IMG/VR virus record: IMGVR_UViG_3300032893_000022
Reading direction: 5' to 3' (one strand)
DNA length: 64,000 nt
DNA from: an uncultured virus (IMG/VR IMGVR_UViG_3300032893_000022)
Lineage: Duplodnaviria; Heunggongvirae; Uroviricota; Caudoviricetes
Position numbers and translations under genes: made by a program. The notes beneath the pieces were generated by a model that was not told the origin of the DNA, did no database searches, and worked only from the letters and a program-made list of their open reading frames with translations. Below are positions 1,580 through 63,092 of this stretch, in pieces; position 1 is the first letter of the stretch; each line of letters begins with the position of its first letter.

Positions 1580-1809
1580 GGTTTCTTATATAAGGGACAG
1601 GGCATAGTCGCGCTATGAAAATTATTTCCGGGACCATACGTCTTGTCACTGCCGCATTCACACTTTGGGGGTTCAACAATCTTATATGGAACATATCCAA
1701 AGAAATCTAATTGTTCTTGTTTTTGAGCAGGTAGAATAGTTCCACAATCAGAACAAGCCCATTCATCACCTTTAAGAATTCTTGGGGAATAGCTACAACA
1801 AGGTTTCAT
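1576..1809 (-). CDS. Small Cys-rich (zinc-binding) hypothetical protein
   Basis: CC, CSDC, CEC and H-x4-C motifs. Confidence 0.65.
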   Translation of the reverse strand: MKPCCSYSPRILKGDEWACSDCGTILPAQKQEQLDFFGYVPYKIVEPPKCECGSDKTYGPGNNFHSATMPCPLYKKP

Positions 1810-2276
1810 TTTGAATTCCTTAAATATTCAATAGCTCTTTGTAAAGAATCTTGTGAATCATAAAATAGACCTAAAGCTATATTACAATTATTACAAAGTA
1901 AACCACGAATTTTATTCGATATATGACAATGATCTACATATAAATGATAGTTTTCTTTTTGACAAATAAAACATTTATTGTTTTGTTCTAATTGCATTTT
2001 TTTATATATTTCTAATGTTATACCATGTTTTTGTTTTAAACAATGGCTTCTATATTTATCTGGATTATTTTTTCTCCAAAGTTTATTTTTTTCCGTATAT
2101 TTTTGTTGATTCTTTTTTCTACTTTTATTTTGATATTCTCTAAATTTTTCTTTATTTTTAGCCCGCCATTCCTTTTGTTTTTTATTAAAACAAATTTTAC
2201 AACAATATCTATTTCCTCTACTTTTAGGAAAATCATCTAAAGATTTTTCCATTTGACAAACCTTACATTTTTTCAT
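1806..2276 (-). CDS. Endonuclease VII-family putative homing endonuclease
   Basis: N-terminal CxxC pairs; CFIC...VDHCH...RGLLCNNCN. Confidence 0.9.
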   Translation of the reverse strand: MKKCKVCQMEKSLDDFPKSRGNRYCCKICFNKKQKEWRAKNKEKFREYQNKSRKKNQQKYTEKNKLWRKNNPDKYRSHCLKQKHGITLEIYKKMQLEQNNKCFICQKENYHLYVDHCHISNKIRGLLCNNCNIALGLFYDSQDSLQRAIEYLRNSK

Positions 2277-3030: not shown

Positions 3031-3867
3031 TTATTTTTTAAGTCCCTTTTTAATAGTATTTAGAGTATCACCTAGAATATTTGAAAGTGACCACACATAT
3101 TTAGAGAAGCCTGTTTCTTCGGCTCCCATACCTTTAACCATCATCTTAAACCAAGGTTCATATTTATTATGATATTTAACTTCCAACAAGAAGTTTTTTT
3201 CATTAGAGAATCTATCTCTATAATCTTGAACATCATCCCATAAATCTTGATTACGAAGATCTTGAATTGTAGCTAAATCTATAAGTCTTAAAGGTCTCCA
3301 TTTAATATCTTGATCCATTGTTACTCTAAACTTTTCATCCTCTTGAAATGCATATCGTTTGTACATTATATCTACAACAGGAGTACATTTATTTAATGTT
3401 AATAAGTAGTTAATAATGTTTGCATGTTTGGTAACTTCATCTTTGGATACTTCTTCATTAGCCAAATAAAGATCTTCATCAATTTTTATTTGATTATGTT
3501 TCATTGTATATTCATATCCAAGTTCACTTAGTTGAACTCTTGTCTTTGTTGAATCTCCATTATCTTTGGATTTAACTTCCATAAAGTATACACCATTATG
3601 TTCACCATTTGGATAATATGTTCTAATGCGGATTTTACGTCTTTCACCAACACCGTTAAGATGTTGTTTTAAAAACGTTAAATCAGGACTATCAAAATAA
3701 ATTGATCTATTAATTGTATACTCAGCTCCAGGATCATGACTATAAGCCGGTATATGACTTTCAACTATTTGTTTGGTTTCATTTAATTTATCTTTTGGAA
3801 GGATAAATTTGTCTTCGATACGTTCTTTATCTATTTGAGATGACTCAGGTTTTCCGTTTCCTATCAT
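3031..3867 (-). CDS. VTC-domain (CYTH-like tunnel fold, polyphosphate polymerase family) protein
   Basis: SIYFD, RRKIRIRTY, EVK, YKR, RVTMD, LLEVK, FSKY; AGGAG RBS. Confidence 0.85.
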   Translation of the reverse strand: MIGNGKPESSQIDKERIEDKFILPKDKLNETKQIVESHIPAYSHDPGAEYTINRSIYFDSPDLTFLKQHLNGVGERRKIRIRTYYPNGEHNGVYFMEVKSKDNGDSTKTRVQLSELGYEYTMKHNQIKIDEDLYLANEEVSKDEVTKHANIINYLLTLNKCTPVVDIMYKRYAFQEDEKFRVTMDQDIKWRPLRLIDLATIQDLRNQDLWDDVQDYRDRFSNEKNFLLEVKYHNKYEPWFKMMVKGMGAEETGFSKYVWSLSNILGDTLNTIKKGLKK

Positions 3868-3972: not shown

Positions 3973-4047
3973 TGGGGTGATCGTTGGAATTTGCATCCAA
4001 ACTACCAGGGCCACAACCTAGCGTGCGAACTGTTACACTACGATCAC
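3973..4047 (-). tRNA. trnH: tRNA-His (GUG)
   Basis: Acceptor GTGATCG/CGATCAC, D stem GTGT/GCAC, anticodon stem CTAGG/CCTGG with loop TT-GTG-GC, T stem TTGGA/TCCAA, discriminator C, encoded CCA. Confidence 0.92.
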
Positions 4048-4698: not shown

Positions 4699-4961
4699 TC
4701 TTCCTCCAAAGCTTTCGTTAAATCTAATTCAATTTTACTGCAACCAAACTCTAGTCCCGGACTTGTCCATTTATCAATCTGTGCTCTCTCAATAATATAC
4801 CTCGCTAAAGAGCTTGCTGATTCCATTGCTTTGGTAAGATAATTCACACGTTTGATTAACCATGTTACATCAGTATAATTAATCGGAAATCCATCTTCAT
4901 TCTCAACTTCCCATTTTAGTTTTCTAGCCTCAATTTCCTTGAGCCGTTCACTTGGTTTCAT
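4695..4961 (-). CDS. Hypothetical protein, paralogue of 635..877
   Basis: Shared termini at protein and DNA level. Confidence 0.7.
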   Translation of the reverse strand: MKPSERLKEIEARKLKWEVENEDGFPINYTDVTWLIKRVNYLTKAMESASSLARYIIERAQIDKWTSPGLEFGCSKIELDLTKALEEE

Positions 4962-5467
4962 ACATCACTCCTTAAATATTTTATTGCTTTTTTTAAAATA
5001 TTAATATTATCTTTAGCATTTCCTAAAAGGAAATTACAATTTTTACATAATAAACCTCTAACTTTATTAGTTTTATGACAATGATCTACACATAAATTTT
5101 TCTTAGATTTCAAATTACATATTAAACATTTATAATTTTGATTTTTTAACATTATAATATATTCTTCTATAGTTATTCCATATTTTTTCTTTAATTCATA
5201 TTTTCTATTCATTTCTTTTACCTTATGTTTATTATTTTTAGCCCATCGATTCTTGATTTTATTGTGTCTTTTTAAATTATTTTTATTCCATCTTTTATTA
5301 ATATAGTTAATATGTTCTTTATTTCTATTATACCATTCTTTATCTTTTTGTTTTTTACATTGTTTACAATAAAATCCTAATCCGTCAGGAGAACTTTTGT
5401 TTCGGTTAAAATTAGAAATAGATTGAGGATTTTTATTTAAACATTTTTTATTACTACAGTTTTTCAT
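4958..5467 (-). CDS. Endonuclease VII-family putative homing endonuclease
   Basis: CLIC...VDHCH...RGLLCKNCN. Confidence 0.9.
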   Translation of the reverse strand: MKNCSNKKCLNKNPQSISNFNRNKSSPDGLGFYCKQCKKQKDKEWYNRNKEHINYINKRWNKNNLKRHNKIKNRWAKNNKHKVKEMNRKYELKKKYGITIEEYIIMLKNQNYKCLICNLKSKKNLCVDHCHKTNKVRGLLCKNCNFLLGNAKDNINILKKAIKYLRSDV

Positions 5468-5788: not shown

Positions 5789-6358
5789 TTAAGATCTTCC
5801 TGTAAATTTTAATATTTTTTCTATATGAATAAAAAATTCTTCTTGAGAAAGTTGTTGTTTCATATAATTACAAATTTTACAACAAGATACAACGTTTCCT
5901 TTTATATAACCTTTTTTACTATCAATTCTATCAATTCCATTATAAATATATTCTCCATTTAATCTACATTTTCCATTTTTATATTTCATTGTAAAAATTC
6001 CTTTAGGTTCAGAACCACAATAAACACAATATCCTTTGGATAATAAATGAACTTCTTCTTTAGATAAATGAAATTCTATATTTCTTTTTTGTGAATTACT
6101 TACTAAATTTCGATATAGATTATTGAAGGCCGCTTCTCCTTTTTTCAAAACTATTCTTCCTTTGTTTGTTCTGGCTCGTTCAATAACAAGACATCCACAA
6201 CTTTTAATAATTCCTCGGGATATAACGGTTGTACTTAATATTTTTTCTTTTCCGCAATCACATAAACAAAGATAATGTGTTCTATTGGAAATCATTATCT
6301 TTTTTATTGGAATTAATTTATTATACTTTTTATTTAATTCAACTTTTATTTGTTTCAT
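5789..6358 (-). CDS. HNH-type homing endonuclease
   Basis: CLCDCG, SCGC, CVYC, GIDRIDSKKGYIKGNVVSCCKICN. Confidence 0.85.
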   Translation of the reverse strand: MKQIKVELNKKYNKLIPIKKIMISNRTHYLCLCDCGKEKILSTTVISRGIIKSCGCLVIERARTNKGRIVLKKGEAAFNNLYRNLVSNSQKRNIEFHLSKEEVHLLSKGYCVYCGSEPKGIFTMKYKNGKCRLNGEYIYNGIDRIDSKKGYIKGNVVSCCKICNYMKQQLSQEEFFIHIEKILKFTGRS

Positions 6359-7518: not shown

Positions 7519-7764
7519 TCATATACCATCCTTAAAATTCTCTTTAAAAGCATCTAAGAAATCTACTTCAGAATAATTTTCTTTTACTGATACACATTCG
7601 TTTTCCCAAATTCCATTTATCATATTATTAAAATATAATATATTCATGTTACAACTTGGACTATATGTCATTTTATTTATCTCTACAATTTTTCCTGCGA
7701 AAGATCGGGAATCGTTAGATACTCCTTTTTTAATTTTAACTTTATCTCCAACTTTAATCTTCAT
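7519..7764 (-). CDS. Small protein with KxGDK N-terminus and shared C-terminal motif (member 1)
   Basis: KVGDKVKI...SEVDFLDAFKENFKDGI. Confidence 0.75.
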   Translation of the reverse strand: MKIKVGDKVKIKKGVSNDSRSFAGKIVEINKMTYSPSCNMNILYFNNMINGIWENECVSVKENYSEVDFLDAFKENFKDGI

Positions 7765-7947
7765 GCGTTACCTATCCTTTTTATCCTATTAGAATTGATA
7801 TGACTTTGTGATTGACTTTCTTTTATTAGAGCATCCATTGTAATCATTAATAATTCAAAAGAATTAAATGGGCCATCTCTTTTTTCATCAATCATTTTAT
7901 GAATTAAAGATTCTACCTCTTTAAGCATCTCACTTATTTTTTCTTTT

Positions 7948-8199
7948 TTATTCATAATAATTTTCCTCATTCTTTTTGAATGCATCTAATAATCTAGTTC
8001 CAGATTTTCTTTTAAATTGTATAACCTTTTTAAAATAAGATAAAGGATATTCTCTAGTTAATCCTTCTAAGTATACTACATTGTGGGTAAAAGAAAATTC
8101 TTTTATGATGTATTCTTTTCCAAGCTTTACTTTTCTCCAGTCGTCTTTTACTCTTATACATTTTATTTTATCTCCTTTTTTATATTTAATTTTAAACAT
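7948..8199 (-). CDS. Small protein with KxGDK N-terminus and degenerate C-terminal motif (member 2)
   Basis: KKGDKIKC...RLLDAFKKNEENYYE. Confidence 0.7.
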   Translation of the reverse strand: MFKIKYKKGDKIKCIRVKDDWRKVKLGKEYIIKEFSFTHNVVYLEGLTREYPLSYFKKVIQFKRKSGTRLLDAFKKNEENYYE

Positions 8200-8929
8200 T
8201 CTCTAACTCCTTAATAGCATTGACATAAGATTCTAGAGTCGTATTTTCTAAAGCCGGAGCGGTGTTCACCTCTAAAACTCTTGCCTTTCCATTCCCTAGC
8301 ATCACAATATCGACAGCGCCAAAGTCTAAGCCAAGGGCCTTTACGGCATCGACAGCTAGTGTTTTAATGGACTCTTTAACAATCGCATTCTCACGACAGA
8401 ATACCCAACCATTCTTATAACTTCTAACATACTTATCATATTCTAATTCATTGATATCATTACGTTTTCTTTTTTGAACATAATCAATAACTTTTCCATT
8501 AAATACATGGACTCTAAATTCATATTTCTTTGGAAAGTATTTAACATAAACCTTTGAAACCGTTGGTAAATCTTCAATTACTTTACAAACTGTAATACCT
8601 TTTCCGCTATGACTTTCAAGTAAACTTCTGGATAAAACAATATAACCTTCTTTAATCCATTCAACTGCTTGTTTATATGAAGTTGTAAAGTCTGGGACAG
8701 GAATACCAGCATCTTTCATTATTTTAAATGCACGAAGTTTATTAACAGCATTGTTAACAGATTGTGGATTATTTAATACTTTAAACGTGCCAACGATAGG
8801 AGCTGCGCATCCCCAGTTAATAGCTAAATCTTTACGGAATTGCAGACGTTTAGTGATCATTGGAATTTGGAGATTGTAACACAGATTTCTAGCGGAAGAA
8901 GATTTTCTTTTATATGGAATTAAGAACAT
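8192..8929 (-). CDS. ATP-grasp peptide ligase (phiEco32-like/RimK-like)
   Basis: INWG, NKL, EFRVHV, LGLDFGAVD, VLEVNTAP. Confidence 0.9.
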   Translation of the reverse strand: MFLIPYKRKSSSARNLCYNLQIPMITKRLQFRKDLAINWGCAAPIVGTFKVLNNPQSVNNAVNKLRAFKIMKDAGIPVPDFTTSYKQAVEWIKEGYIVLSRSLLESHSGKGITVCKVIEDLPTVSKVYVKYFPKKYEFRVHVFNGKVIDYVQKRKRNDINELEYDKYVRSYKNGWVFCRENAIVKESIKTLAVDAVKALGLDFGAVDIVMLGNGKARVLEVNTAPALENTTLESYVNAIKELENV

Positions 8930-8931
8930 TG

Positions 8932-9177
8932 TTATACTCCTTCTTTAAAGTTTAATTGAAATGCATCTAAATAATCTATTTCAGATAAATTATCTTTAAA
9001 AAGTTTAAAATTATTAGGATTAAAATTTCCATATTCATTTTTTAACTGTATTATTTCTGGACTTTTTACTAAGCTAACAGTATAAATTTCACCAACACAT
9101 TTTTCTGCATGAGAAAGTTGAAAATGACCACGCGGTGGTTTTGTAATACATTTAACTTTATCGCCTATTTTAAACAT
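8932..9177 (-). CDS. Small protein with KxGDK N-terminus and shared C-terminal motif (member 3)
   Basis: FKIGDKVKC...SEIDYLDAFQLNFKEGV. Confidence 0.75.
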   Translation of the reverse strand: MFKIGDKVKCITKPPRGHFQLSHAEKCVGEIYTVSLVKSPEIIQLKNEYGNFNPNNFKLFKDNLSEIDYLDAFQLNFKEGV

Positions 9178-9422
9178 TAGTGTGCCCCTTGCGCGAAGTT
9201 CAATTCAGGATTATAATAGGCCTCGGCTAACATATAAACCGCTTCACTTTCTATATCCTCAAACAAATCCTTTTCATAAGGAACAAAGATTCTTATATCA
9301 TCTTCGTTTAAAAATGTTAAAGTTAATCCTTCAATATATTCAGCTCCAATAATATTTTTACACGTAGCTACAACTTGCACTGATTGATTGCGCATTGGAT
9401 ATTCAAATGTTACTTGCAACAT
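9177..9422 (-). CDS. Hypothetical acidic protein
   Basis: AAGGAG RBS; packed in the operon. Confidence 0.65.
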   Translation of the reverse strand: MLQVTFEYPMRNQSVQVVATCKNIIGAEYIEGLTLTFLNEDDIRIFVPYEKDLFEDIESEAVYMLAEAYYNPELNFAQGAH

Positions 9423-9432
9423 ATTATCTCCT

Positions 9433-9624
9433 TTATGAATGATTATTAAATTTTGTTAAAATCCACGATATTACTAATCCTAATAAAATGAACCCAATAA
9501 GTCCACTAAATAATGCGGCCCCGACTTCTAATATTCCCATGAATATATACCCAAATATAACATATCCTAATCCAGTTGTGACAAATAAGATAAATCCTAT
9601 AATCATTAATAGAATTGCTGTCAT
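9433..9624 (-). CDS. Small membrane protein
   Basis: Almost entirely hydrophobic, about two TM helices. Confidence 0.7.
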   Translation of the reverse strand: MTAILLMIIGFILFVTTGLGYVIFGYIFMGILEVGAALFSGLIGFILLGLVISWILTKFNNHS

Positions 9625-9673
9625 TTAAAAATCCTTCCCCAAATTTTTATTTCATTTTTCTTCGGGACTAAAA

Positions 9674-9985
9674 TTAAATCCCAAATCTAAAATTGTCTTG
9701 AATATTATCTAGAATATCTATATCATTTTTCGGAACTTTCTTTTTATATTTTTCAAATGAATTAGGTTCTATAATCCACGATTCACCATCTTTAATAACC
9801 CAGTATTTATAATCTCCATCATGTAAGTAATCATCATCTATATTGAGAGTATTACCATCTTCATCATATTCAACTTCTTCACGATCTATTATTTCATATG
9901 TTTTACCAAGAATAAATCCGTGGGCCTCTGTAGAATCTAATTCTCCATCACCCACAAATTTTATTTTATCACCTATCTTCCACAT
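9674..9985 (-). CDS. Small protein with KxGDK N-terminus and shared C-terminal motif (member 4)
   Basis: WKIGDKIKF...NDIDILDNIQDNFRFGI. Confidence 0.75.
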   Translation of the reverse strand: MWKIGDKIKFVGDGELDSTEAHGFILGKTYEIIDREEVEYDEDGNTLNIDDDYLHDGDYKYWVIKDGESWIIEPNSFEKYKKKVPKNDIDILDNIQDNFRFGI

Positions 9986-9987
9986 AC

Positions 9988-10245
9988 TTAATTCCTTTCA
10001 AACATTATATACTTATATTCTTTTTTAGCATGTAACAAATTGGATAATCTTTTAAAGTAAATAATCTTTACTTTATCTTTAACTGATTCATCTATAATCT
10101 TTGTTGGTTGGCCTTTCTTTGGTTTATCGCTTAACATTGATACAGCAATAGTTACCTTATCAAATGTTTCCAAAGCTTCAGCTAAGGCATTGTCATGTTT
10201 ATCAGTCCATGGATAAAACTTTCCTACGTATAATAATTGTTTCAT
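9988..10245 (-). CDS. Truncated HIGH-family nucleotidyltransferase-like (CoaD-like) protein
   Basis: LYVGKFYPWTDKH...AL..FDKVTIAV resembles CoaD IYPGSFDPITxGH...A...FDEVIVAV; only 85 aa. Confidence 0.6.
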   Translation of the reverse strand: MKQLLYVGKFYPWTDKHDNALAEALETFDKVTIAVSMLSDKPKKGQPTKIIDESVKDKVKIIYFKRLSNLLHAKKEYKYIMFERN

Positions 10246-10246
10246 G

Positions 10247-10471
10247 TTAGATTCCTTCTTTAAAGTTTTGTTGAATATTATCTAACCAATCAGTTTCATT
10301 TTTAATTTCTTTATATAATTTAAAGGGACATTTTCCATACCAATTATTAACTACCCAATGTCCTTTCCAAACAAGATGCCCATTTTTTCCTTTTGTGATT
10401 TTATAAACTGTTCCTCTTGGATCGCCTTCAAAATCCTCGATCAAAATAATTTTGTCACCTTCTTTATACAT
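10247..10471 (-). CDS. Small protein with KxGDK N-terminus and shared C-terminal motif (member 5)
   Basis: YKEGDKIIL...NETDWLDNIQQNFKEGI. Confidence 0.75.
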   Translation of the reverse strand: MYKEGDKIILIEDFEGDPRGTVYKITKGKNGHLVWKGHWVVNNWYGKCPFKLYKEIKNETDWLDNIQQNFKEGI

Positions 10472-10480
10472 AGTAAATCC

Positions 10481-11713
10481 TTACGCTAAAGTTTTCTTGT
10501 GCCAAGTTAATTTCTCGTCAACTTCCCAGACAGTTTCTCCACCATCATTAAAAACATCTGCAATCTCATCACGAATTTCCTCAGTAATTCCAGTAGATAG
10601 ACCACCATTTACTTCGGCATTTGCTTTTGCGATCATCTCCTCAACTTCTTCTTGAGTATATTCTTTATTACCTAAAATCATTTCCTCAAGTTGACGTTCT
10701 TTAATAGCTTCCACATGTTTAGATTTAGAATGAGAAGTCATATCAATGATGTTGTTATTCTTAGGAGTCTTAGGAAATACATCTCCAAACTTTGTTAGTC
10801 CACTTTCATTGCCTCTAGTATAGTAATCACTATATGGGTAATGGGATTCATGACTGTTGTTTGTATTCCATTGTTTATTATTAACTGAAGAATTTCTAGT
10901 AAACTCTTTAGGTTTAAAACTTTCATATGCTATTGTTTCGCCAGTCAACGCATCCATTCTTTGTAACCTATTAGCTTTAACTTCATACTTAGATACAATC
11001 GTAAAGCCTAATGTTTTACATGCATCCTCTACAGGAGATGCTTGGTATCTTGGGGTTGCAAATACAACTGTGTTTAGTTCTTTAATAAAGAATGCATCAA
11101 GTCTTGCGGAGTTATCTTTAATAACATCCAATATAACTCTACCTTCAGAAGTTCTGGAAAAGATTCCAAGAGCGTAATAACCTTCAAGCTTATTAACCAT
11201 CTTCCTAATCTTTCCAGGTTTGTTTGCAACATTATGTTTAATATATTGATGAAGAATAACTTCACTATCACAAGTAGAAGTTTTCTTAGTTAATTGATCA
11301 TCGTTATATATAACTCCATTGTGTATAACTGAAGTATGATTCTCAACAAATGGATGAGTATTTTTATAACTAACTGTATTAGTGGCAGACCTAGAATGTA
11401 ATGTTATACTTCGAATGTTCTCATTAAATACTCCAAAGTTTCCATATACTTTTTCTCTATTTAAAATCTTATACCTCTTTAAGATATTGGTATCAATCTC
11501 TGACCCATAAACATTCTTATGTTTAAACGCATCTTTATTATCAACCCATCGTTCTCCAAAGAGATTACCATTAGCATCTATAGCAGCATAGCCCAGGCCA
11601 TCTTTCTCTGTAGAATTTGGACTAGACATTTCTTTAGCCATTGCCTTAGTAAACTCCCAAGCTTGTTGCGTGGTTTCATCCGTAATACCAGACATGATCA
11701 TAATTTTACACAT
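10481..11713 (-). CDS. Class II (Ntn) glutamine amidotransferase
   Basis: Start reassigned to ATG at 11713 giving Met-Cys; DGLG, HSRSAT, NTHPF, HNGVI, CDSE. Confidence 0.9.
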   Translation of the reverse strand: MCKIMIMSGITDETTQQAWEFTKAMAKEMSSPNSTEKDGLGYAAIDANGNLFGERWVDNKDAFKHKNVYGSEIDTNILKRYKILNREKVYGNFGVFNENIRSITLHSRSATNTVSYKNTHPFVENHTSVIHNGVIYNDDQLTKKTSTCDSEVILHQYIKHNVANKPGKIRKMVNKLEGYYALGIFSRTSEGRVILDVIKDNSARLDAFFIKELNTVVFATPRYQASPVEDACKTLGFTIVSKYEVKANRLQRMDALTGETIAYESFKPKEFTRNSSVNNKQWNTNNSHESHYPYSDYYTRGNESGLTKFGDVFPKTPKNNNIIDMTSHSKSKHVEAIKERQLEEMILGNKEYTQEEVEEMIAKANAEVNGGLSTGITEEIRDEIADVFNDGGETVWEVDEKLTWHKKTLA

Positions 11714-11881
11714 ATTTTTTATCCTTCCATAAAAGGGTTTCTTCAATTTTAAATAAAGCAATAGGTTTTTTCATTAATCTAGAACGTTTAATAAATTTTT
11801 TCAAATCTTTTTTATTTGTAAAAGCTTCAAGATATTCAGGTTTTTCTTCCCATCTATCTTTCATTTTTACTATATAATATT

Positions 11882-13228
11882 TCACGCAACACCTCGTTCA
11901 GCTTCAGGTTCAACTTGAACAACACCATCCTTCTTTGTTTTAAACTTCTCAATTCTTTCTAACATATATGCTTTAAGTTTAGCATCAATATTAAACTCTT
12001 CACAGAACAATTTTAAACTTACAAAATTCTTAATGATTCTTTCTTTATGATTAGCTATCTTAACTAATATCGCAATCCAATTGGTAATCTTAGTGTAATC
12101 AATAGTTCCGGAATGAATCCTAGTTTCAATAGTTTGATGACGATGCATTGCAATAGGATTGATACCAAGATATCTATATTCTCCATGATCAGGTTTGTTT
12201 TTCATTACTTCAAAATTCCTTTCAATCACCTTCTTAGCATACTTCTCAATCCTGGATTTAGGATTCATTTTGAATAGAATTCCTTGGGCCGATAAAAGAT
12301 TTTGATAAGCTTTCTCGGCATCCCTATTTCTCATATCAAGATGCACATGCATACCGCAACTCTTATTAACAGTAGCTCCGGCTTTAGATAACAAATCACA
12401 AACCTTTTTCATAATGTCTTTATATTCATTTTCTTTTGTTAAGACACAAAGCTCATGTAAGTATTTATTTTTATGATCTGGGCAATCTTCAGGTTTACGA
12501 TCGTTACAACATCTTAGAGAACCATCAACAGTTAAAGTAACTTGTTTACCAACCCCAGCTTCAAATAATGCAAGACCAAGTTTATCCTGATTCCAATCAC
12601 ACATAAACTCTAGTTCAACTCCAATATAATTGTTCTTATCTTTGGGTATTTTAGGAGAGAATACAATTCTTTTTTCTTGATCTTTTAAAAATTTAGCATA
12701 CACTCCTTCTTTTACATTTGGCATATAAATACATCCTCCACTAACAAAATATCTTAATTCGGCTTTTAAAGATTCAACTTTATAAATTTTTTCTTTTTGT
12801 CTAATTTGACGATGATTCATTTTTCTTTTTCTAAATTCATCGGCAATAAGTTTTAAAGAATCTTTAATGTTGGCTCGTTTAGATTGTACTTTAATTTCTC
12901 CAAGAAATCTAGACCATTTAGGATGTCTAAAAGTAATTTCATAATCACTTGCCGTAACAAATGATGGAATATTTTTAAATTTATTTCTCATATCTCTCAT
13001 TCTAATTTCCGTTTTTCCTAAAGAAGTTAGGAGTTCCTCGGGAAGTCTCGGCGGAGCATCTTCGGGTAGTTGACCTGGATAAGCTTTCTCTATAATATTT
13101 ACAAACTTCTTTCTCTTCATATATTCTTTTATTTGGAATTTCCAATCCTCAGTTTTTTCTATTTCCTTTGGTTGATCATTAAGTCTTTTAAACTTAAGAG
13201 TCCCCTTTGGGAATGATAGTTTATTCAT
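11882..13228 (-). CDS. Putative amidoligase (glutamine synthetase fold, Amidoligase_2-like)
   Basis: IGVELEF, DGSL, NKSCGMHVH, RYLGIN, TIETRIHSGT. Confidence 0.88.
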   Translation of the reverse strand: MNKLSFPKGTLKFKRLNDQPKEIEKTEDWKFQIKEYMKRKKFVNIIEKAYPGQLPEDAPPRLPEELLTSLGKTEIRMRDMRNKFKNIPSFVTASDYEITFRHPKWSRFLGEIKVQSKRANIKDSLKLIADEFRKRKMNHRQIRQKEKIYKVESLKAELRYFVSGGCIYMPNVKEGVYAKFLKDQEKRIVFSPKIPKDKNNYIGVELEFMCDWNQDKLGLALFEAGVGKQVTLTVDGSLRCCNDRKPEDCPDHKNKYLHELCVLTKENEYKDIMKKVCDLLSKAGATVNKSCGMHVHLDMRNRDAEKAYQNLLSAQGILFKMNPKSRIEKYAKKVIERNFEVMKNKPDHGEYRYLGINPIAMHRHQTIETRIHSGTIDYTKITNWIAILVKIANHKERIIKNFVSLKLFCEEFNIDAKLKAYMLERIEKFKTKKDGVVQVEPEAERGVA

Positions 13229-13462
13229 AATAAAAATCCTCCTTAAATTACAGGATAAAATTGTTCGGGATTAATTCTTTCTAATTTGAAATAAATTTCT
13301 TTCCCACCAAGGTATCAAAGAAGTCTAATACAAGAGTTAGATTTTGTATAGCATTCAATGCCTCTACATCCTTATTAGGTTCTTGGTGTTTAAGAATAAA
13401 GTAATCATTGTGTTGTTCGATCCATACTTTTCTTTCGGGTAGTTCAATACTCTTTACGATAA

Positions 13463-13681
13463 TCATTCTATCCTCCATATTCTAATAAATTCTTCATCAA
13501 TTCTTCTCGAGAGAATTTTAATATTTGCTCTTTTACCAAAATTTGTCATTTGATTTGGTTTTGTTTTTGGCCACGGAATTACTACAGAATCTCCAACCTC
13601 TAAACTTCTTAAAAACTGAGTAAGTCCTTTTAGTTTGGGAATTGGAATATTCTTTTCAATTTTAAAATCATATTTAATCAT
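13463..13681 (-). CDS. Small phage protein, possibly DNA-binding
   Basis: IEKNIPIP...LEVGDS...IRIWR pattern common in phage small proteins. Confidence 0.55.
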   Translation of the reverse strand: MIKYDFKIEKNIPIPKLKGLTQFLRSLEVGDSVVIPWPKTKPNQMTNFGKRANIKILSRRIDEEFIRIWRIE

Positions 13682-14081
13682 ATGTTATCATCCTTTCCTG
13701 TATAAACTTTTCACCAAATATTCCTATAAGCTTATCAACTCCTTCATTAGATATGAAGTGATCTTCTCCACCACAATAAATTATTTCTCCTTCTAATACA
13801 GATAATTGTTTTAAAGATATAGGACAATAGATTGTTTCTGTTATTAATTCTTTCCTATATTTTATTTCATTATCTGTTAAGTATGTGCCGTATTTACTTT
13901 TCTGAACCTGCATATGAATCCTTTCCTATTTCTAGTATATGAAAGTTATAATACTTTGAGACAGGATATAAAAGAAAATTAGCTAAAGCATATTCAGCTT
14001 CTTCTCTATTACTACAAGTTTCTAATACTTCAGTAAAGCCATCACTCAGTTGACCAATTACCTGATAAGTTTTATCCATTG

Positions 14082-14333
14082 TTAAACTCCTTCTTTGAAA
14101 TTATCTTGAATAGCATTTAACCAATCAACTTCTGTTTTAATTTCTTTATTCATTAAAGTGAATCCATTATATATAAAGTGTTTTATTAAACTATCATAAG
14201 TCCATCCATATGAAATTTGCCATGGAGCACCTTCTTCCATTGCATAATATAAATAATGATTATCTATTTTAACAGAACAATATTGTTTCCTTCCATTAGG
14301 AAGAATTCTAAATAATCTAGTTATATTATTCAT
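14082..14333 (-). CDS. Small protein with shared C-terminal motif and unrelated N-terminus (member 6)
   Basis: KEIKTEVDWLNAIQDNFKEGV. Confidence 0.75.
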   Translation of the reverse strand: MNNITRLFRILPNGRKQYCSVKIDNHYLYYAMEEGAPWQISYGWTYDSLIKHFIYNGFTLMNKEIKTEVDWLNAIQDNFKEGV

Positions 14334-14362
14334 GATATCAACTCACTTTCTAAAGTGATTAT

Positions 14363-15718
14363 CTAAGCAACTTTCTCTCCAGTTTCGATAATTGAACGTG
14401 CAGTTAAAACATTCTTTCCTTTTACATTACAATGCGAAACCCAATCATTAGTCTTCAAATTCCAATTATCTTCAATATCATCTGGGTTCTTAATTACTGA
14501 TTCCATTCCATTTTTGAATACATTAAAGATTGTTATTGCTCCGGCATCGTTTATGGTTCTATATGCCGCTTTAATCAATTGAAGCATGAGATTCTTATTT
14601 CTGTCAAGAATTTTTCTTGCTTTTTTTACATCGCATTGTTGAATGCATTCAATTGTTTCTTTTTCTGTCGCCTTCCAATGTTTAGAATAACCTTTATCCC
14701 CCATAACAACAACCTTTCTCCCAATATCAAATACTAAGTTTGTCATTAGGGGATGAAACATCCATGCATTACTTAATGTTCTATATTCTAATCCATGCGG
14801 CGGAGTTCTATATTCTCCAGCTAATCCATACATCTCTCGACGCTTTGGATTATCATATTTAGCAAAGAGTGATACACACGCTACACCAAGCACAGCATCT
14901 AACGCTTTAACAATTGTTTCATATTGTTCTTTAGTTCGTTTACCTATTCCAAAATGGAGATGCCCACCTGCTGACCTAAAGGCAACGTCTCGACCAGACA
15001 TTGTAACACCTTTAAGACCATATGCATTCTCGCTTGGCATGCAGCCAAATTCAACATGTTCATCTTTAGCATTCTTTATTAGTTCAAATGGGATATCCAT
15101 AACAGTTTGACTGGACAACTTGGCATTCTTATTGTGCTTTTTAGCTTCATTATAAACACCTTGCAATCCACGTTGGATACTATCTACTTGCCAAGATAAA
15201 CAATTTTGTGGTGATGTAGTAAACTCGGCTTGGAAACCATCCCAATATAAATTGTTTGAACCACAAACAGCAGGTGATTCAGGTAATGCTTTAGGTGCAA
15301 TACTAGGTGCTTTCTTTGAACCTAAGAAATCAAATGCGGGAATAACTTCACCTTTATCATTCTCTACAAAAATCTCAGGGTCAGAACCAATCATAAAACC
15401 ATGAGTCAAATGATTCTTTAAATCATTTATAACATATTGTTCATATTTTTTTAAAGCAGCAATTCTTTCTTTACCAACAATCTTTTTAACTTGCAAATCA
15501 TTTGGAACTATAACTTGTTTATATATTCCATTATAAAAGAATGTTAGATACATTAATTCAGCTCCATTCTTTTGGAGGTTAGTAATAACTAGTGATTCAT
15601 TTGGAAATTCAAATGCGGCATACCTATTAAATCCTTCTCCGCCAGCTTCCAACTTTAGATTGCAAACCTTAATAACTATATTATGTTTGTCTAGAAATTC
15701 TAATAGTTTCCGTTTCAT
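14363..15718 (-). CDS. phiEco32-like COOH-NH2 ligase type 2
   Basis: IGSDPEIF, DGFQAEF, FGCMP, RSAGGHLHFG, RREMYGLAGEYR, GLEYRTLSNAW. Confidence 0.9.
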   Translation of the reverse strand: MKRKLLEFLDKHNIVIKVCNLKLEAGGEGFNRYAAFEFPNESLVITNLQKNGAELMYLTFFYNGIYKQVIVPNDLQVKKIVGKERIAALKKYEQYVINDLKNHLTHGFMIGSDPEIFVENDKGEVIPAFDFLGSKKAPSIAPKALPESPAVCGSNNLYWDGFQAEFTTSPQNCLSWQVDSIQRGLQGVYNEAKKHNKNAKLSSQTVMDIPFELIKNAKDEHVEFGCMPSENAYGLKGVTMSGRDVAFRSAGGHLHFGIGKRTKEQYETIVKALDAVLGVACVSLFAKYDNPKRREMYGLAGEYRTPPHGLEYRTLSNAWMFHPLMTNLVFDIGRKVVVMGDKGYSKHWKATEKETIECIQQCDVKKARKILDRNKNLMLQLIKAAYRTINDAGAITIFNVFKNGMESVIKNPDDIEDNWNLKTNDWVSHCNVKGKNVLTARSIIETGEKVA

Positions 15719-21781: not shown

Positions 21782-22368
21782 GAAAAGATGATGTGGTACT
21801 TATCCTTTGTGTTCTTGGTGTTATTGGTTATCTCCTTTTTGTATTATCATGTTTAGAAACATTAGGAATAATGAACCGAGACATTAAAAGAGTAATATTT
21901 CAACATTACAACGTTCCATTACCTAAGGAATAGATATGGAAATCAATAAAAGAGTCTGCAAAGTTTGTGGAAAAGAAAAAGATCGTATTCTTGTGGGGAA
22001 GTTTAATCACAAGGATAAGAAATATATAGATGAAACTGGTAAGAGTTGGAACGGATCTTCGTGTCCTGGATGCCATAAAGAACTTGTTCGACTTAAAACT
22101 CAATTAAAAAGATCAATAAAATGAAAAGAAGTGAAATGATCTTAAATATAGCATCAGAATTAGTGAGAGAAGAATCTAATTTCATTTCTTGGGATAAAGC
22201 TCAAATTTTAGCAGAACACGTTTTAAAACGAATTGAAAAAGAAGGAATGTTGCCTCCTTCTCAATTATTTAAAAATATTCCTTGGGGTTTTCAATGCGAA
22301 TGGGAACCTGAAACCGAAGATAGTTTTTCTGTTTCTAGAGAATCATATCAAAAATGGAAAAGAGGAGA

Positions 22369-22839
22369 ATGAATCTTCTTTATTATCCAAATATTAGTCT
22401 CACAACGTATTGTCATGAAGTTAAAACTTTTGATCATGGTATCCATATTGTTTTAGATAATATGAAAAGGATTATGGAAGAAGCAAATGGAATGGGCCTC
22501 GCGGCTAATCAAGTTGGATTAGATCTTAGGGTCTTTATAATGAAAGATCTTAAAGGAAAGATCTGGGAGTTTGTTAATCCCGTTATTATATTCGAAGATG
22601 ATGTTCAATATGAAGATGAGGGTTGTCTATCTTTTCCTGGAGTTGTAGTTCAAGTTAAACGTTCTAAACAAGTTAGTGTTAAAGCTCAAGATAGAAATGG
22701 CGAATGGTTTCATATAGGTGCTTATGGAAAAGAAGCAGTTTGTATTCAGCATGAAATGGAGCATTTAAACGGACAGACTTTTCTCAATGGGTTATCTAGA
22801 CAACAAAAAAGAGATGCATTGCGGAGTATTAAGAAATGA
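22369..22839 (+). CDS. def: Peptide deformylase
   Basis: GMGLAANQVG, EGCLS, QHEMEHLNG. Confidence 0.93.
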   Translation: MNLLYYPNISLTTYCHEVKTFDHGIHIVLDNMKRIMEEANGMGLAANQVGLDLRVFIMKDLKGKIWEFVNPVIIFEDDVQYEDEGCLSFPGVVVQVKRSKQVSVKAQDRNGEWFHIGAYGKEAVCIQHEMEHLNGQTFLNGLSRQQKRDALRSIKK

Positions 22840-38706: not shown

Positions 38707-39279
38707 ATGACTAAAGAATGTAAAATTTGTAAAGTAATTAAAGAAGAGGAAGAATTTTTCACTTGTGGAAGATATAAAGATAAGATTTATCGTCGTGGAG
38801 AATGTATCAAATGTCATAATTCATTAAGATTTGGTAAAAACAATGAATATTATAAAGAACGCAATAAAACATTAGAACGAAAATTAAAAAATAAAATTAC
38901 TAAATCTAAACCGGAATATAAAGAAAAACAAAGAATTTATGAAAATAAAAAATACAAAGAAGATATTGTTTATCGTTTAAAAAAATGTCTAAGAATTCGA
39001 GTAAGAATTGCTTTAAAAGCTAAAAAATGGCGTAAAGATAATACACTCCATAAATATCTAGGTTGTTCATTAGATCAATTAAAAGAACATTTGGCATCTA
39101 AATTTATTGATAATATGACCTGGGAGAATTATGGTTTTGGATTAGACAAATGGACTATAGATCATATAATTCCTTTAGATTCGGCTCAAACTCCTGAAGA
39201 AATGTATAAGTTGTGTCATTTCAGTAACTTACAACCAATGTGGTATATAGATAATATTAAAAAATCTAATAAATATTAA
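38707..39279 (+). CDS. HNH-type endonuclease
   Basis: YLGCS, MTWENYG, WTIDHIIP, HFSNLQPMW..DN..KSN. Confidence 0.85.
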   Translation: MTKECKICKVIKEEEEFFTCGRYKDKIYRRGECIKCHNSLRFGKNNEYYKERNKTLERKLKNKITKSKPEYKEKQRIYENKKYKEDIVYRLKKCLRIRVRIALKAKKWRKDNTLHKYLGCSLDQLKEHLASKFIDNMTWENYGFGLDKWTIDHIIPLDSAQTPEEMYKLCHFSNLQPMWYIDNIKKSNKY

Positions 39280-43066: not shown

Positions 43067-43570
43067 ATGCCTCTTTTACCCGGAAAAAAGAATATATCCA
43101 GAAATATAGCAGAGCTTATTAGATCAGGACGTGATCCTAAACAATGTAATGTATGTAAAATGGTTAAAGATTCAAGTGAATTTCACCAAAATAAAGCCAA
43201 AAAAGATGGTTTAAATAATAAATGTAAAGCATGTAATTGTTTAAAAGCTAAAGAATATAATAAAAATGTCTATAAAACAAAAAATGCCAAATTAAAGAAG
43301 ATATATGGTATAACTATTGAACATTATAATGAATTATTCCAAAAACAAAATGGTTGTTGTGCTATTTGCAATAAACCCGAAATAACAATCGACAAAAGAA
43401 CTAAAAAATTACGCGGATTAGCGGTAGATCATAATCATAAAACAGGTGAAATCCGGGGATTATTATGTTCAGCCCACAATAGAGCGTTGGGTATGTTTCA
43501 TGATGATATTAATGAACTTTTAAAAGCTATAGAATATTTAGAAAAAAGGAAATTACATGCCATTGCTTAA
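43067..43570 (+). CDS. Endonuclease VII-family nuclease fused to a copy of the next gene's N-terminus
   Basis: MPLLPGKKNISRNIAELIRSGR then CxxC, AVDHNH, RGLLC. Confidence 0.85.
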   Translation: MPLLPGKKNISRNIAELIRSGRDPKQCNVCKMVKDSSEFHQNKAKKDGLNNKCKACNCLKAKEYNKNVYKTKNAKLKKIYGITIEHYNELFQKQNGCCAICNKPEITIDKRTKKLRGLAVDHNHKTGEIRGLLCSAHNRALGMFHDDINELLKAIEYLEKRKLHAIA

Positions 43571-61154: not shown

Positions 61155-61380
61155 CTTTATTCTTCTCCTCATCTAGTTTCTTTTGAATTTCATCTTGTTT
61201 CTGCTTTGAAGCTTCAATTAAAGCCTCATTTTTAATAATATCTTTTTGAGCTTCATCAATTTTTTCTTTTGTCTCGATGTTGTCATTTAGGGCTTCTGCA
61301 CTCTTTCTTTTACGAAATTCGTACCAAAGCCCTCCACCTAATAATAAAACTAATGTAATTAAAATACTAGTTAAATTCAT
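61105..61380 (-). CDS. N-terminal TM + coiled coil (inner-spanin-like)
   Basis: ILITLVLLLGGGLW then heptads. Confidence 0.55.
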   Translation of the reverse strand: MNLTSILITLVLLLGGGLWYEFRKRKSAEALNDNIETKEKIDEAQKDIIKNEALIEASKQKQDEIQKKLDEEKNKDVSKDDLLDFFNKSNK

Positions 61381-62282
61381 TATTTTCTCCAGATCATATC
61401 TTTAGAAACCAAAGAACAAACTTCTTTAAGTTTCTTCAAATTTTCTGGCGTCAAATCATTATTATAATTAAGTTTTTTACATTTTTCAATAAGATCTCTT
61501 GTAGTTACTGCTGTTTCAGTTTCAGATTTGGATTCAATTTTAAGACGTTGATCAACAAAATCTTCAGTTAATGTTTGTGCTTCTGAAGTTAAAAAATTCA
61601 CAACTTGTTCATAAGGAACTGTCCATGAATATCCAAAATCACCTTGACCAGCAAATACAACCCCAATAAGTTCTTTATTTACATTATAGACTCCAGATCC
61701 TGAACTTCCAGGCATTATTGTCGCAGACGTTAAAACTGATTCATAATATTTAATAATAGGAGTTCCACCTAAAAATACGCACATTAAAGGATTATTTTGA
61801 ATATCTTCTTCAGTACAAGGTTTAACGCCAATAAATACTGGAATAACAGCTCTTCCAGATAAATGTCCTTTGGATATTACATTGGGCATTAAAGCAGGAA
61901 ATCCACTAACTAATACATCATCATATACTTTTGGAGCAGTTGAAGAAAGAACTGTATTAACTTTTAAATCATCTAGGACACTTACAACACAAAGATCTGA
62001 TTGTTTAGATTCAACAATGGAATGAACTTGATAATTTCCTTTTTGAGCAAGGACAGAACCACCATCTTTAACAACCTTACAAACATGATCATTTGTAAGA
62101 ATCCAACTTTTATGTGTTGAAGAATTATAAACGAGACCAGTTCCTCCATGGTTCATTGCTCGATTAGTAATCATAACGGCATTTGATCCGATATCATTAG
62201 TATTTTTCTTTGTATGAAAAAATGTATATCCTAATACTAAAACTCCGGCTAAGATTAGCCCTTTCCCTAGCTTATTTCTCAT
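61380..62282 (-). CDS. Membrane-anchored trypsin-like serine protease
   Basis: TNDHVC (His), SDLC (Asp), PGSSGSG (Ser); N-terminal TM. Confidence 0.88.
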   Translation of the reverse strand: MRNKLGKGLILAGVLVLGYTFFHTKKNTNDIGSNAVMITNRAMNHGGTGLVYNSSTHKSWILTNDHVCKVVKDGGSVLAQKGNYQVHSIVESKQSDLCVVSVLDDLKVNTVLSSTAPKVYDDVLVSGFPALMPNVISKGHLSGRAVIPVFIGVKPCTEEDIQNNPLMCVFLGGTPIIKYYESVLTSATIMPGSSGSGVYNVNKELIGVVFAGQGDFGYSWTVPYEQVVNFLTSEAQTLTEDFVDQRLKIESKSETETAVTTRDLIEKCKKLNYNNDLTPENLKKLKEVCSLVSKDMIWRK

Positions 62283-62580: not shown

Positions 62581-62610
62581 ATTATACTATTAAATAATAA
62601 TAATTGTCAA
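62581..62610 (-). promoter_or_regulatory. Sigma70 consensus promoter
   Basis: TTGACA-N18-TATAAT, 9 nt before ATG 62571. Confidence 0.65.
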
Positions 62611-63092
62611 GTATTTTTTAAATATTCTGCAGCTTTCATACAAATCTTAAAATCGTCTTGTAAAAGACCTATACCCCTATTACAATTATAACAAAGCAAT
62701 CCTCTAATTTTTCCAGTTTTATGACAATGATCTACAGATAAAGCTTGTTTAAATTCGTTATTATTTTTTAAACAGATTTTACAACAATAATTTTGTTCTT
62801 CTAAAAATTTATTATATATTTCTAAAGTTATATTAAAATTTCTTTTTAACCATCTATTTTTAGATTTATTCGGATGTTTTTTTTCATATTCACGAAAATA
62901 GTTTGGATTTTCTTTTCTAAATTGTTTATTTCTTATTTTAGTTAATTCTTTAGAATGTGAATTTTGTCTATATTTTCTTTCATAAATGTTATTACAATTT
63001 TTACATCTATAATTTAATCCATCATTATGTCTTTTATTTTTTGTAAAATCTTTTAATTCTTTAATTTGTTTACATTTAGTACATTGTTTCAT
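62607..63092 (-). CDS. Endonuclease VII-family nuclease
   Basis: CKIC...SVDHCH...RGLLCYNCN. Confidence 0.9.
   Translation of the reverse strand: MKQCTKCKQIKELKDFTKNKRHNDGLNYRCKNCNNIYERKYRQNSHSKELTKIRNKQFRKENPNYFREYEKKHPNKSKNRWLKRNFNITLEIYNKFLEEQNYCCKICLKNNNEFKQALSVDHCHKTGKIRGLLCYNCNRGIGLLQDDFKICMKAAEYLKNT

Follow-up and report, generated by a model that had tools for sequence, protein, structure and literature searches.

Introduction

Phages of the phiEco32, LUZ24 and PaP3 type carry an amidoligase cassette in which four enzyme families follow one another in the order COOH-NH2 ligase, amidoligase, class II glutamine amidotransferase (GATase) and ATP-grasp ligase; its description is reportedly to be credited to Iyer et al. 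2009. Here we analyse a stretch of 64,000 nucleotides (the window) from the uncultured tailed phage IMGVR_UViG_3300032893_000022 (Caudoviricetes), which has these four enzymes in unchanged order but in which, unlike in the phiEco32-type cassette, the block is stretched by six genes for small tail-bearing proteins and by three other conserved small genes. The best explanation for these six proteins, and a reasonably probable one, is that they are adaptor-like proteins whose C-terminal tail is a docking peptide for one shared partner. In the gene table of UFV-P2 all four families are likewise found in this order (PMC3890496). PMC10580990 cites only a suggested role in the cell wall, and the substrate and product of the cassette are still not established there. 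The cassette is common in phages, its COOH-NH2 ligase matching 309 records in one isolate-phage collection.

SspB-type protease adaptors and the clients of the T4 clamp with their gp45-binding tails combine a folded domain, a flexible segment and a conserved C-terminal peptide that tethers them to a hub. The family described here has the same design, with no sequence relation to these proteins and no Pfam match, and here one genome encodes six paralogues. Pup, a disordered protein, has GGQ or GGE at its end. The window resembles the system of Pup, PafA and Dop in that small proteins are encoded beside glutamine synthetase (GS)-like carboxylate-amine ligases and an amidohydrolase; unlike Pup, the window proteins are folded and have variable ends, and their ligases are related to PafA and Dop at the superfamily level only. 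LysW-type carrier proteins are small and acidic and have an EDWGE-like tip, the terminal Glu of which is the attachment point; the tail consensus and the endings of the family differ from this type. RimK (acting on S6), LysX and ArgX (on the carrier LysW) and tubulin tyrosine ligase (on tubulin) are ATP-grasp ligases that bind flexible C-terminal peptides (PMC10375531). These substrates have strongly acidic tails, in which the terminal residue is the one that reacts, whereas the window tail has a net charge of -2 to -3 over 14 residues, invariant positions at L, N and F, and a variable last residue.

Results

The initial annotation, made from the sequence of the window, had claimed that five small open reading frames (ORFs) share a C-terminal motif and that a sixth carries a decayed copy of it. 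All six ORFs were confirmed with their endings on the minus strand (Table 1), and a strict end-anchored pattern for the tail matches exactly the five intact ORFs in the window and nothing in 14 related loci. The sixth ORF, at 7948, does hold a decayed copy, which retains only LLDAFKKN. The shared start that had been noted as KxGDK[VI] is present in five of the six as M[FWYK]K[IEV]..GDK[VI], and the N-terminus of 14082 is indeed unrelated to the rest, scoring 3.0 bits against the family model compared with 25-51 bits for the other five.

A ten-sequence profile of the family, run against 1.84 billion cluster representatives, found 480 of them at E<=0.001 and 51 at E<=1e-10, thus the tail motif of the window is not a product of chance. 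Among the best 150 matches, 105 were short proteins (72-132 amino acids; the class was defined as 135 amino acids or less) that match from end to end and keep the tail. The remaining 45 are longer, and those that were scanned or read consist of several generic SH3-like repeats without the tail. Anchored on its N-F pair, the tail of the 105 has the consensus [EKP][PLI]K[NT]E[IV][DE][WYF]L[DN][AR][FIV][QKR]xNFK[ED](G[VI]). All 105 have D or N at -5, 104 have the L at -6, and an acidic residue (E or D) at -10 and the F behind the anchor N are each found in 103, whereas the final G[VI] is retained in about three quarters of the family. Substitutions within the tail are conservative (I/V, D/E, W/Y/F, Q/K/R). 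On the favoured explanation, all six genes are paralogues that have diverged extremely and belong to one widespread, still unnamed family of non-structural phage proteins.

Pfam has no model for the ten proteins scanned (the six of the window and four family members from elsewhere), and PHROG gave nothing significant for the small ORFs, only weak matches (E>=3e-05) that cover the barrel alone. All that the ESM Atlas returned were viral clusters without a name, with T4 Y07B as a minority label, and tblastn with one member against 50,697 isolated-phage records found nothing. A degenerate DNA pattern of the tail, which demands E at -10 and K at +2 and therefore misses part of the family, hit 5 stretches on 4 viral contigs, 43 stretches in metagenomes and 30 stretches in bacterial genomes. 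Real members were found among the viral hits only on the contig of G001, among the metagenome hits on 6 short contigs, and among the bacterial hits not at all. G001 is the closest relative of the window phage in IMG/VR, a complete contig of 85,261 bp, and has five members with the same tail around its amidoligase, GATase and ATP-grasp genes. Two G001 proteins hold the motif internally, with about 60 to 80 further residues behind it. Two long Clostridia proteins (Table 1) contain EE[IF]EYL[ND]KFKQNFK about 16 residues from their C-terminus; they match the family model weakly (E 0.005-0.007), so that the resemblance could be coincidental or the motif a remote copy in a cellular genome.

The structure of the 8932 protein was predicted with AlphaFold2 (AF2) from an alignment of 106 sequences. 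The mean predicted local distance difference test score (pLDDT) was 84, with means for successive tens of residues of 94, 91, 90, 95, 95, 95, 62, 55 and 49: residues 1-60 form a confident barrel and the tail is unstructured in the model, with low confidence. Comparison of the barrel with SH3 and KOW domains gave Z scores of 5.5-6.8, for instance 6.2 for the KOW domain of NusG with a root mean square deviation of 1.8 over 48 residues, whereas Foldseek reached E>=0.025 at best. In the model the N-terminal domain typical of five members thus has the features of a small five-stranded SH3-like or KOW-like barrel; the predicted resemblance is one of fold only, from which no family assignment follows.

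The 14082 protein was predicted to fold differently: its residues 1-60 (pLDDT 80-92) form a sheet of three strands and one helix, and the tail behind them, with values of 61, 60 and 44, is drawn as a low-confidence helix at residues 68-81. Its best fold match is 2ra8_A (Z 7.1), WGR domains follow at Z 4.7, making it weakly WGR-like, and no SH3 entry is present in the best 50 rows of its matches. The single orthologue found for it, P0280, is 60% identical overall and identical in the last 21 residues; the domain is 45% identical and the tail 18/18.

Across the family the relative entropy per site is 2.75 bits in the tail compared with 1.38 bits in the domain, and between the five intact window paralogues the domain is 21% and the tail 54% identical. 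The tail is therefore predicted to be unstructured when alone and at the same time more conserved at the protein level than its flanks, as is typical of docking motifs. The earlier description as a variable binder with a constant tail is thus supported: of the two parts only the N-terminal domain is modelled with confidence, no part is better conserved than the tail, and the tail occurs on two folds.

The enzymes around which the ORFs had been said to lie were all identified by Pfam, each above the cut-off, so that the block belongs to the phiEco32-type amidoligase cassettes. The same enzyme order was found in G001, in G004 (a sister phage, 96% complete) and in the loci L128, L137, L141, L158 and L171. 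The COOH-NH2 ligase has orthologues with 45% identity in G001 and G004. Translation of the GATase likely starts with Met-Cys at 11713 rather than with the TTG at 11761, because the orthologues in G001 and G004 begin with MCK or MCR. The closest solved relatives of the ATP-grasp protein are RimK chains (E 3e-11). The C-termini of the enzymes are alike in the window, L001 (the locus of G001) and L004 (the locus of G004), with ..ERGVA; ..GEKVA, ..GDKAA or ..GKIAS; and ..W[HR]KKT[LA]A, small-hydrophobic ends of a kind recognised by some proteases. On L032 (1-3018) the slot of the COOH-NH2 ligase (s15863-like gene / tail member) is empty, the ligase being absent or located elsewhere.

The DNA context of a tail-bearing gene could be read on eight contigs, and seven of the eight show the block of the window. 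The members of the window and of G001 have the full enzyme block beside them. L021 has the order GATase, member, s9988, member; L020 has GATase, member, s9177, member; and L023 and L028 both have member, member, membrane protein, s9177, member. L032 has member, s15863, member, s13674, s13281, amidoligase, GATase, and on L046 nothing recognisable lies beside the members. Furthermore, 14 of 27 small family clusters have a source and a longest-contig size identical to those of one of the 120 ATP-grasp orthologues listed, and on contigs of 5 kb or more this applies to 8 of 9 clusters. From these matches we infer that family clusters and ATP-grasp orthologues share contigs.

The enzymes also occur without the family. 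G004 has all four, at 37-46% identity, and no tail-family member; thus the enzymes work without the tail. Among 80 further IMG/VR loci with ATP-grasp relatives (35-47% identical), the tail was found in none at E<=1, and tail-less SH3-like proteins were found as 12 ORFs in eight of them. All positive contexts come from one clade of ~85-kb phages, so that the co-occurrence may be inherited gene order. The proposed link between the small proteins and the ligase cluster is therefore supported by position only, every recognisable context being inside the block, and shared descent within one clade may explain it.

Other phages share other tails. G004 has eight small proteins, some with SH3-like starts, that end in ..KK[SNH]HLP.W[FW]L, ..HLP.RIFG.. 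or ..KKHHWPDWMK. An unbiased scan for shared endings in the 80 ATP-grasp loci gave 152 pairs compared with 5 after shuffling of the tails, concentrated in five loci (Table 1). These five belong to unrelated IMG/VR phages, and all have the full cassette plus Peptidase_C26. Here the cassette was called by Pfam, as blastp was too insensitive for the amidoligase and missed the coincidence with the sets. The tailed genes of the five loci lie between the enzyme genes and run on into the primase/helicase region, and in those lineages about half of the tailed genes are located beyond the cassette, in the neighbourhood of replication genes. Between lineages the tails differ chemically (acidic, basic or hydrophobic), even though their enzymes are orthologous. 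In a control of 70 loci without the cassette (750 kb; those below 5 kb were skipped), the one set detected was an artefact of Cys-rich repeats; as most of these loci are bacterial and the control is unmatched to phage early regions, no enrichment is claimed. The arrays of the five loci and of G004 resemble the window in that diverged small genes carry one short C-terminal peptide, but the window tail is longer (~16 residues), recurs in diverged proteins that number in the hundreds, and is restricted to the enzyme block. That the tails of sister phages differ in a concerted way suggests a lineage-dependent partner, either phage-encoded or host-specific. G001 has a second expanded SH3-like family (L.PG.K.KC ... 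RFTLDLE), the shared ending of which resembles the last barrel strand and not a free tail.

The window belongs to an uncultured tailed phage of ~85 kb (its contig is recorded as 85,012 bp), has a GC content of ~28-37% and carries its genes for terminase, portal, tail fibres and the major head protein at 24.8-59 kb of the plus strand. The head proteins of the window, G001 and G004 are 62-65% identical to one another, and megablast of the region against isolated phages gave no match. The small ORFs and the enzyme genes form a tightly packed, co-directional block on the minus strand. In 12 kb of this block no terminator-like site was found, promoter-like sites were at chance level (67 found, 63 expected), and Rfam had no match in the region. 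The ORF at 7948 overlaps the end of the ATP-grasp gene by 8 nucleotides. A VTC-domain protein is encoded in the same leftward block; it is found in G001 and not in G004. Among many EndoVII/HNH-like genes, at least six of endonuclease type are spread over the early and structural regions, which suggests heavy homing-endonuclease traffic. The window also has one tRNA gene and a phage peptide deformylase gene.

Table 1. Features of the window and of related loci, with positions in nucleotides
Locus	Position	Strand	Feature	Details
Window	7519-7764	-	Family member, last of the set	SH3-like domain and tail, ending ..SEVDFLDAFKENFKDGI
Window	7948-8199	-	Family member with decayed tail	Intact SH3-like domain (N-terminal part E 5e-11), ending ..TRLLDAFKKNEENYYE
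Window	8192..8929	-	RimK-like ATP-grasp ligase	PF08443 E 9e-06; PHROG 2599 E 1e-67
Window	8932-9177	-	Family member, the modelled protein	Ending ..SEIDYLDAFQLNFKEGV; 2-nucleotide gap to downstream ATP-grasp gene
Window	9177..9422	-	Conserved small protein (s9177), 81 amino acids	Orthologues in G001, L020, L023, L028; no Pfam match
Window	9433..9624	-	Hydrophobic, probably membrane, protein, 63 amino acids	Judged from sequence; orthologues on L023, L028
Window	9674-9985	-	Family member, 103 amino acids, longer barrel	Ending ..NDIDILDNIQDNFRFGI; orthologues in L001 (37%), L021 (53%)
Window	9988..10245	-	Conserved neighbour (s9988), 85 amino acids, weakly nucleotidyltransferase-like N-terminus	PHROG 3462 E 0.0013; orthologue 54% identical in same place on L021
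Window	10247-10471	-	Family member directly behind GATase gene	SH3-like domain and tail, ending ..NETDWLDNIQQNFKEGI; slot also filled by a family member in G001, L020, L021
Window	10481..11713	-	Class II (N-terminal nucleophile, Ntn) GATase	GATase_6 E 1.4e-09
Window	11882..13228	-	Amidoligase_2 enzyme	PF12224 E 1.6e-12; L032 orthologue 52% identical
Window	14082-14333	-	Tail-bearing protein, non-SH3 N-domain	Ending ..TEVDWLNAIQDNFKEGV; tail residues 64-83
Window	14363..15718	-	COOH-NH2 ligase type 2 (phiEco32-like), first block enzyme	PF14395 E 1.5e-14; PHROG 3815 E 1.3e-41
Window	10481-10504, 11882-11896, 14363-14377		Shared enzyme ends	
Window	1806-2276, 4958-5467, 5789-6358, 38707-39279, 43067-43570, 62607-63092		EndoVII/HNH-type endonuclease genes	
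Window	3031-3867	-	VTC-domain protein	Pfam E 7.5e-38
Window	3976-4047	-	tRNA gene	Rfam, 48 bits
Window	22354-22839	+	Phage peptide deformylase	PHROG 2890 E 8.5e-32
Window	61380-62282	-	Trypsin-like peptidase	Trypsin_2 E 4e-14; G001 orthologue 46%; absent from G004
L001	2549-2752, 3870-4079, 4720-4944, 7935-8156, 8129-8368, 8332-8679, 9130-9348, 9345-9548		Second SH3-like family of G001	
L004	2564-2800, 5825-6160, 11390-11752, 12878-13126, 13343-13636, 13633-13896, 14072-14497, 14770-15012		Different-tail set of G004	
L158			14 genes in set	Shared ending ..YDP.QQGD.DEDI
L141			9 genes in set	Shared ending ..YDP.QQ[PR]DEEDDI
L128			9-11 genes in set	Shared ending ..FKGNK
L137			5-9 genes in set	Shared ending ..SLENE
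L171			5-7 genes in set	Shared ending ..SLENK
L081	6795-8861	-	Long Clostridia protein with motif copy	
L084	8093-10084	+	Long Clostridia protein with motif copy	

Discussion

The observed family, its architecture, the conservation of the tail at the protein level, its occurrence on two folds and the position of the genes in the block lead us to infer docking by the tail and a target for it. Each protein would consist of a small globular binding domain, SH3/KOW-like in five members and of another fold in 14082, and a flexible C-terminal peptide of ~16 residues. This peptide would serve as a short linear docking motif, probably turning helical upon binding. The paralogues would then form a panel of adaptors that bind different ligands through their variable domains and all attach to one common partner through their constant tail. 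Tail and domain behave as modules: the tail is found on a non-SH3 fold in 14082 and internally in two G001 proteins, and the SH3-like domains of G004 bear another tail.

Several observations weigh against this proposal. The helical hydrophobic moment of the tail is modest (0.20-0.48), and a low pLDDT is a proxy for disorder only. Among 114 tail-bearing proteins, 111 have the tail tied to an SH3-like domain, a count from a search that is biased towards this domain; the tail could thus be an extension peculiar to this family that serves structure or oligomerisation. In addition, the codons for the final KEG are also shaped by the ribosome binding site of the following gene.

As to the partner, we assign about one third of the expectation to a protein co-transcribed in the block, with the RimK-like ATP-grasp enzyme first, and about another third to a hub of the host or elsewhere in the phage, such as a protease, the clamp or a polymerase; the rest goes to other roles. 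A cassette enzyme, possible rather than likely, is the most testable of these candidates. The trypsin-like peptidase, one of the genes that the window shares with G001 but not with G004, was considered as a partner and dropped, as it carries a membrane anchor at its N-terminus and lacks a PDZ domain.

The alternative that survives best, tentative as it is, regards the tails as handles for the amidoligase block: an enzyme, most plausibly the RimK-like ATP-grasp ligase, would dock onto the tail and either modify it or employ the small proteins as carriers or adaptors. In that case this family would supply the protein substrate or partner that the phiEco32-type cassette has so far been missing. 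The tail genes are located inside the block in the window and G001, the same gene order recurs on four short metagenome contigs (GATase-member, or member-membrane protein-s9177-member), and on L032 members lie upstream of the amidoligase gene. The matches of family clusters to ATP-grasp orthologues in source and contig size point the same way, as do the five of 80 unrelated ATP-grasp loci in which 5-14 small genes with shared tails of their own lie amid the full cassette. Furthermore, the invariant R139 of the phage ATP-grasp proteins corresponds to R189 of RimK, an Arg by which the terminal residue is bound, as counted on the printed alignment. This match supports a link between enzyme and tail only weakly, because the Arg is probably general to the reaction. 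Against such handles speak the absence of this tail from all of the 80 other ATP-grasp loci and from G004 with its four enzymes, and the restriction of the positive cases to one clade, in which linkage may be inheritance. The tails of other lineages are chemically unlike each other despite orthologous enzymes, about half of the tailed genes elsewhere are found among replication genes outside the cassette, and the base-rate control, with its mostly bacterial DNA, is weak.

A wider version of this idea, to which we give slightly less credence, is that the cassette as such is directed at proteins: several unrelated phage lineages would have acquired panels of small binders with lineage-specific C-terminal handles, and the ligases would dock on, modify or conjugate these binders. 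If this is true, the cassette would be a phage-encoded modular system of adaptors or of protein tagging, and the tail family of the window would be its best-conserved example.

It is unlikely that the tail is a structural or self-association element that, for example, assembles the barrels into hetero-oligomers without an outside partner. The coupling of tail and SH3-like domain described above and the co-expression of several paralogues from one block would fit such a role, and SH3- and Sm-like barrels often form rings. But AF2 leaves the tail unpacked on the barrel despite the alignment of 106 sequences, the tail is fully conserved on the unrelated fold of 14082, and many tail-less SH3-like relatives exist as tandem repeats.

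Compared with docking to a shared partner, a Pup-like tag is very improbable. Here the small proteins would be ligated through their C-terminal residue to lysines of targets by the GS-like ligases, as the initial annotation had offered as one branch of its interpretation. The block does have two carboxylate-amine ligases of the broad superfamily of PafA and an Ntn amidohydrolase, related cassettes include the gamma-glutamyl-cleaving enzymes Peptidase_C26 and GGACT, and many tails end in K-E or have E or D three residues from the end. However, the proteins have a confidently folded domain of 60 residues instead of being intrinsically disordered, they lack a GGQ or GGE ending, and the enzymes match no Pup-ligase model in Pfam, only PF14395 and PF12224. 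The terminal residue is unconserved: the 105 family tails display at least 40 different endings, among them KEGV (20), KE (12), KDGI (9), KEGI (7) and many others, and one member stops at K. Members with the endings KD, KY and KDV occur as well. The 9674 protein has F in place of the acidic residue. This unfixed last residue, together with the internal motif of the two G001 proteins, argues against a reaction at one fixed terminal residue, and there are orthologous enzyme clusters that lack the tail. Thus, the conjugation branch is not supported.

The least probable reading is that the tail is a nucleic-acid feature read through the coding frame, with the role of a promoter, of a ribosome binding site or of a recombination boundary at which small genes are swapped. 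In three genes AAAGAAGGA (KEG) does lie 1-2 nucleotides ahead of the following start codon, in a fourth the tail itself overlaps that codon, and 9674, with 49 nucleotides to the next gene, ends in RFGI, with RFG instead of KEG. The caveat raised early on, that these codons supply a Shine-Dalgarno sequence, therefore holds, but for the final codons only: the conserved part reaches 12 residues upstream of KEG and its core is kept in hundreds of diverged proteins, so that conservation is not limited to the codons of the Shine-Dalgarno sequence. Since identical residues in the window tails use the same codon in 62 of 94 pairs (0.66, barely above the 0.59 expected from codon usage), the tail DNA is just 62% identical per alignment column and replacements are conservative, the conserved core is selected as protein; with promoter-like sites not enriched and Rfam without a match, the nucleic-acid reading of the D.L[DN]..Q.NF core is already largely refuted.

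Whichever partner proves right, the family gains its interest from what it may say about phage biology. It is large and has so far gone undescribed, and its best-conserved part is a tail predicted to be unstructured, which is the signature of a peptide-mediated interaction hub in the takeover of the host by the phage. A flexible conserved peptide on several co-transcribed small proteins is also a concrete candidate for the substrate or partner of the amidoligase cassette. The presence of different shared tails in other phages suggests that a variable binder with a constant plug is a general design of early phage proteins.

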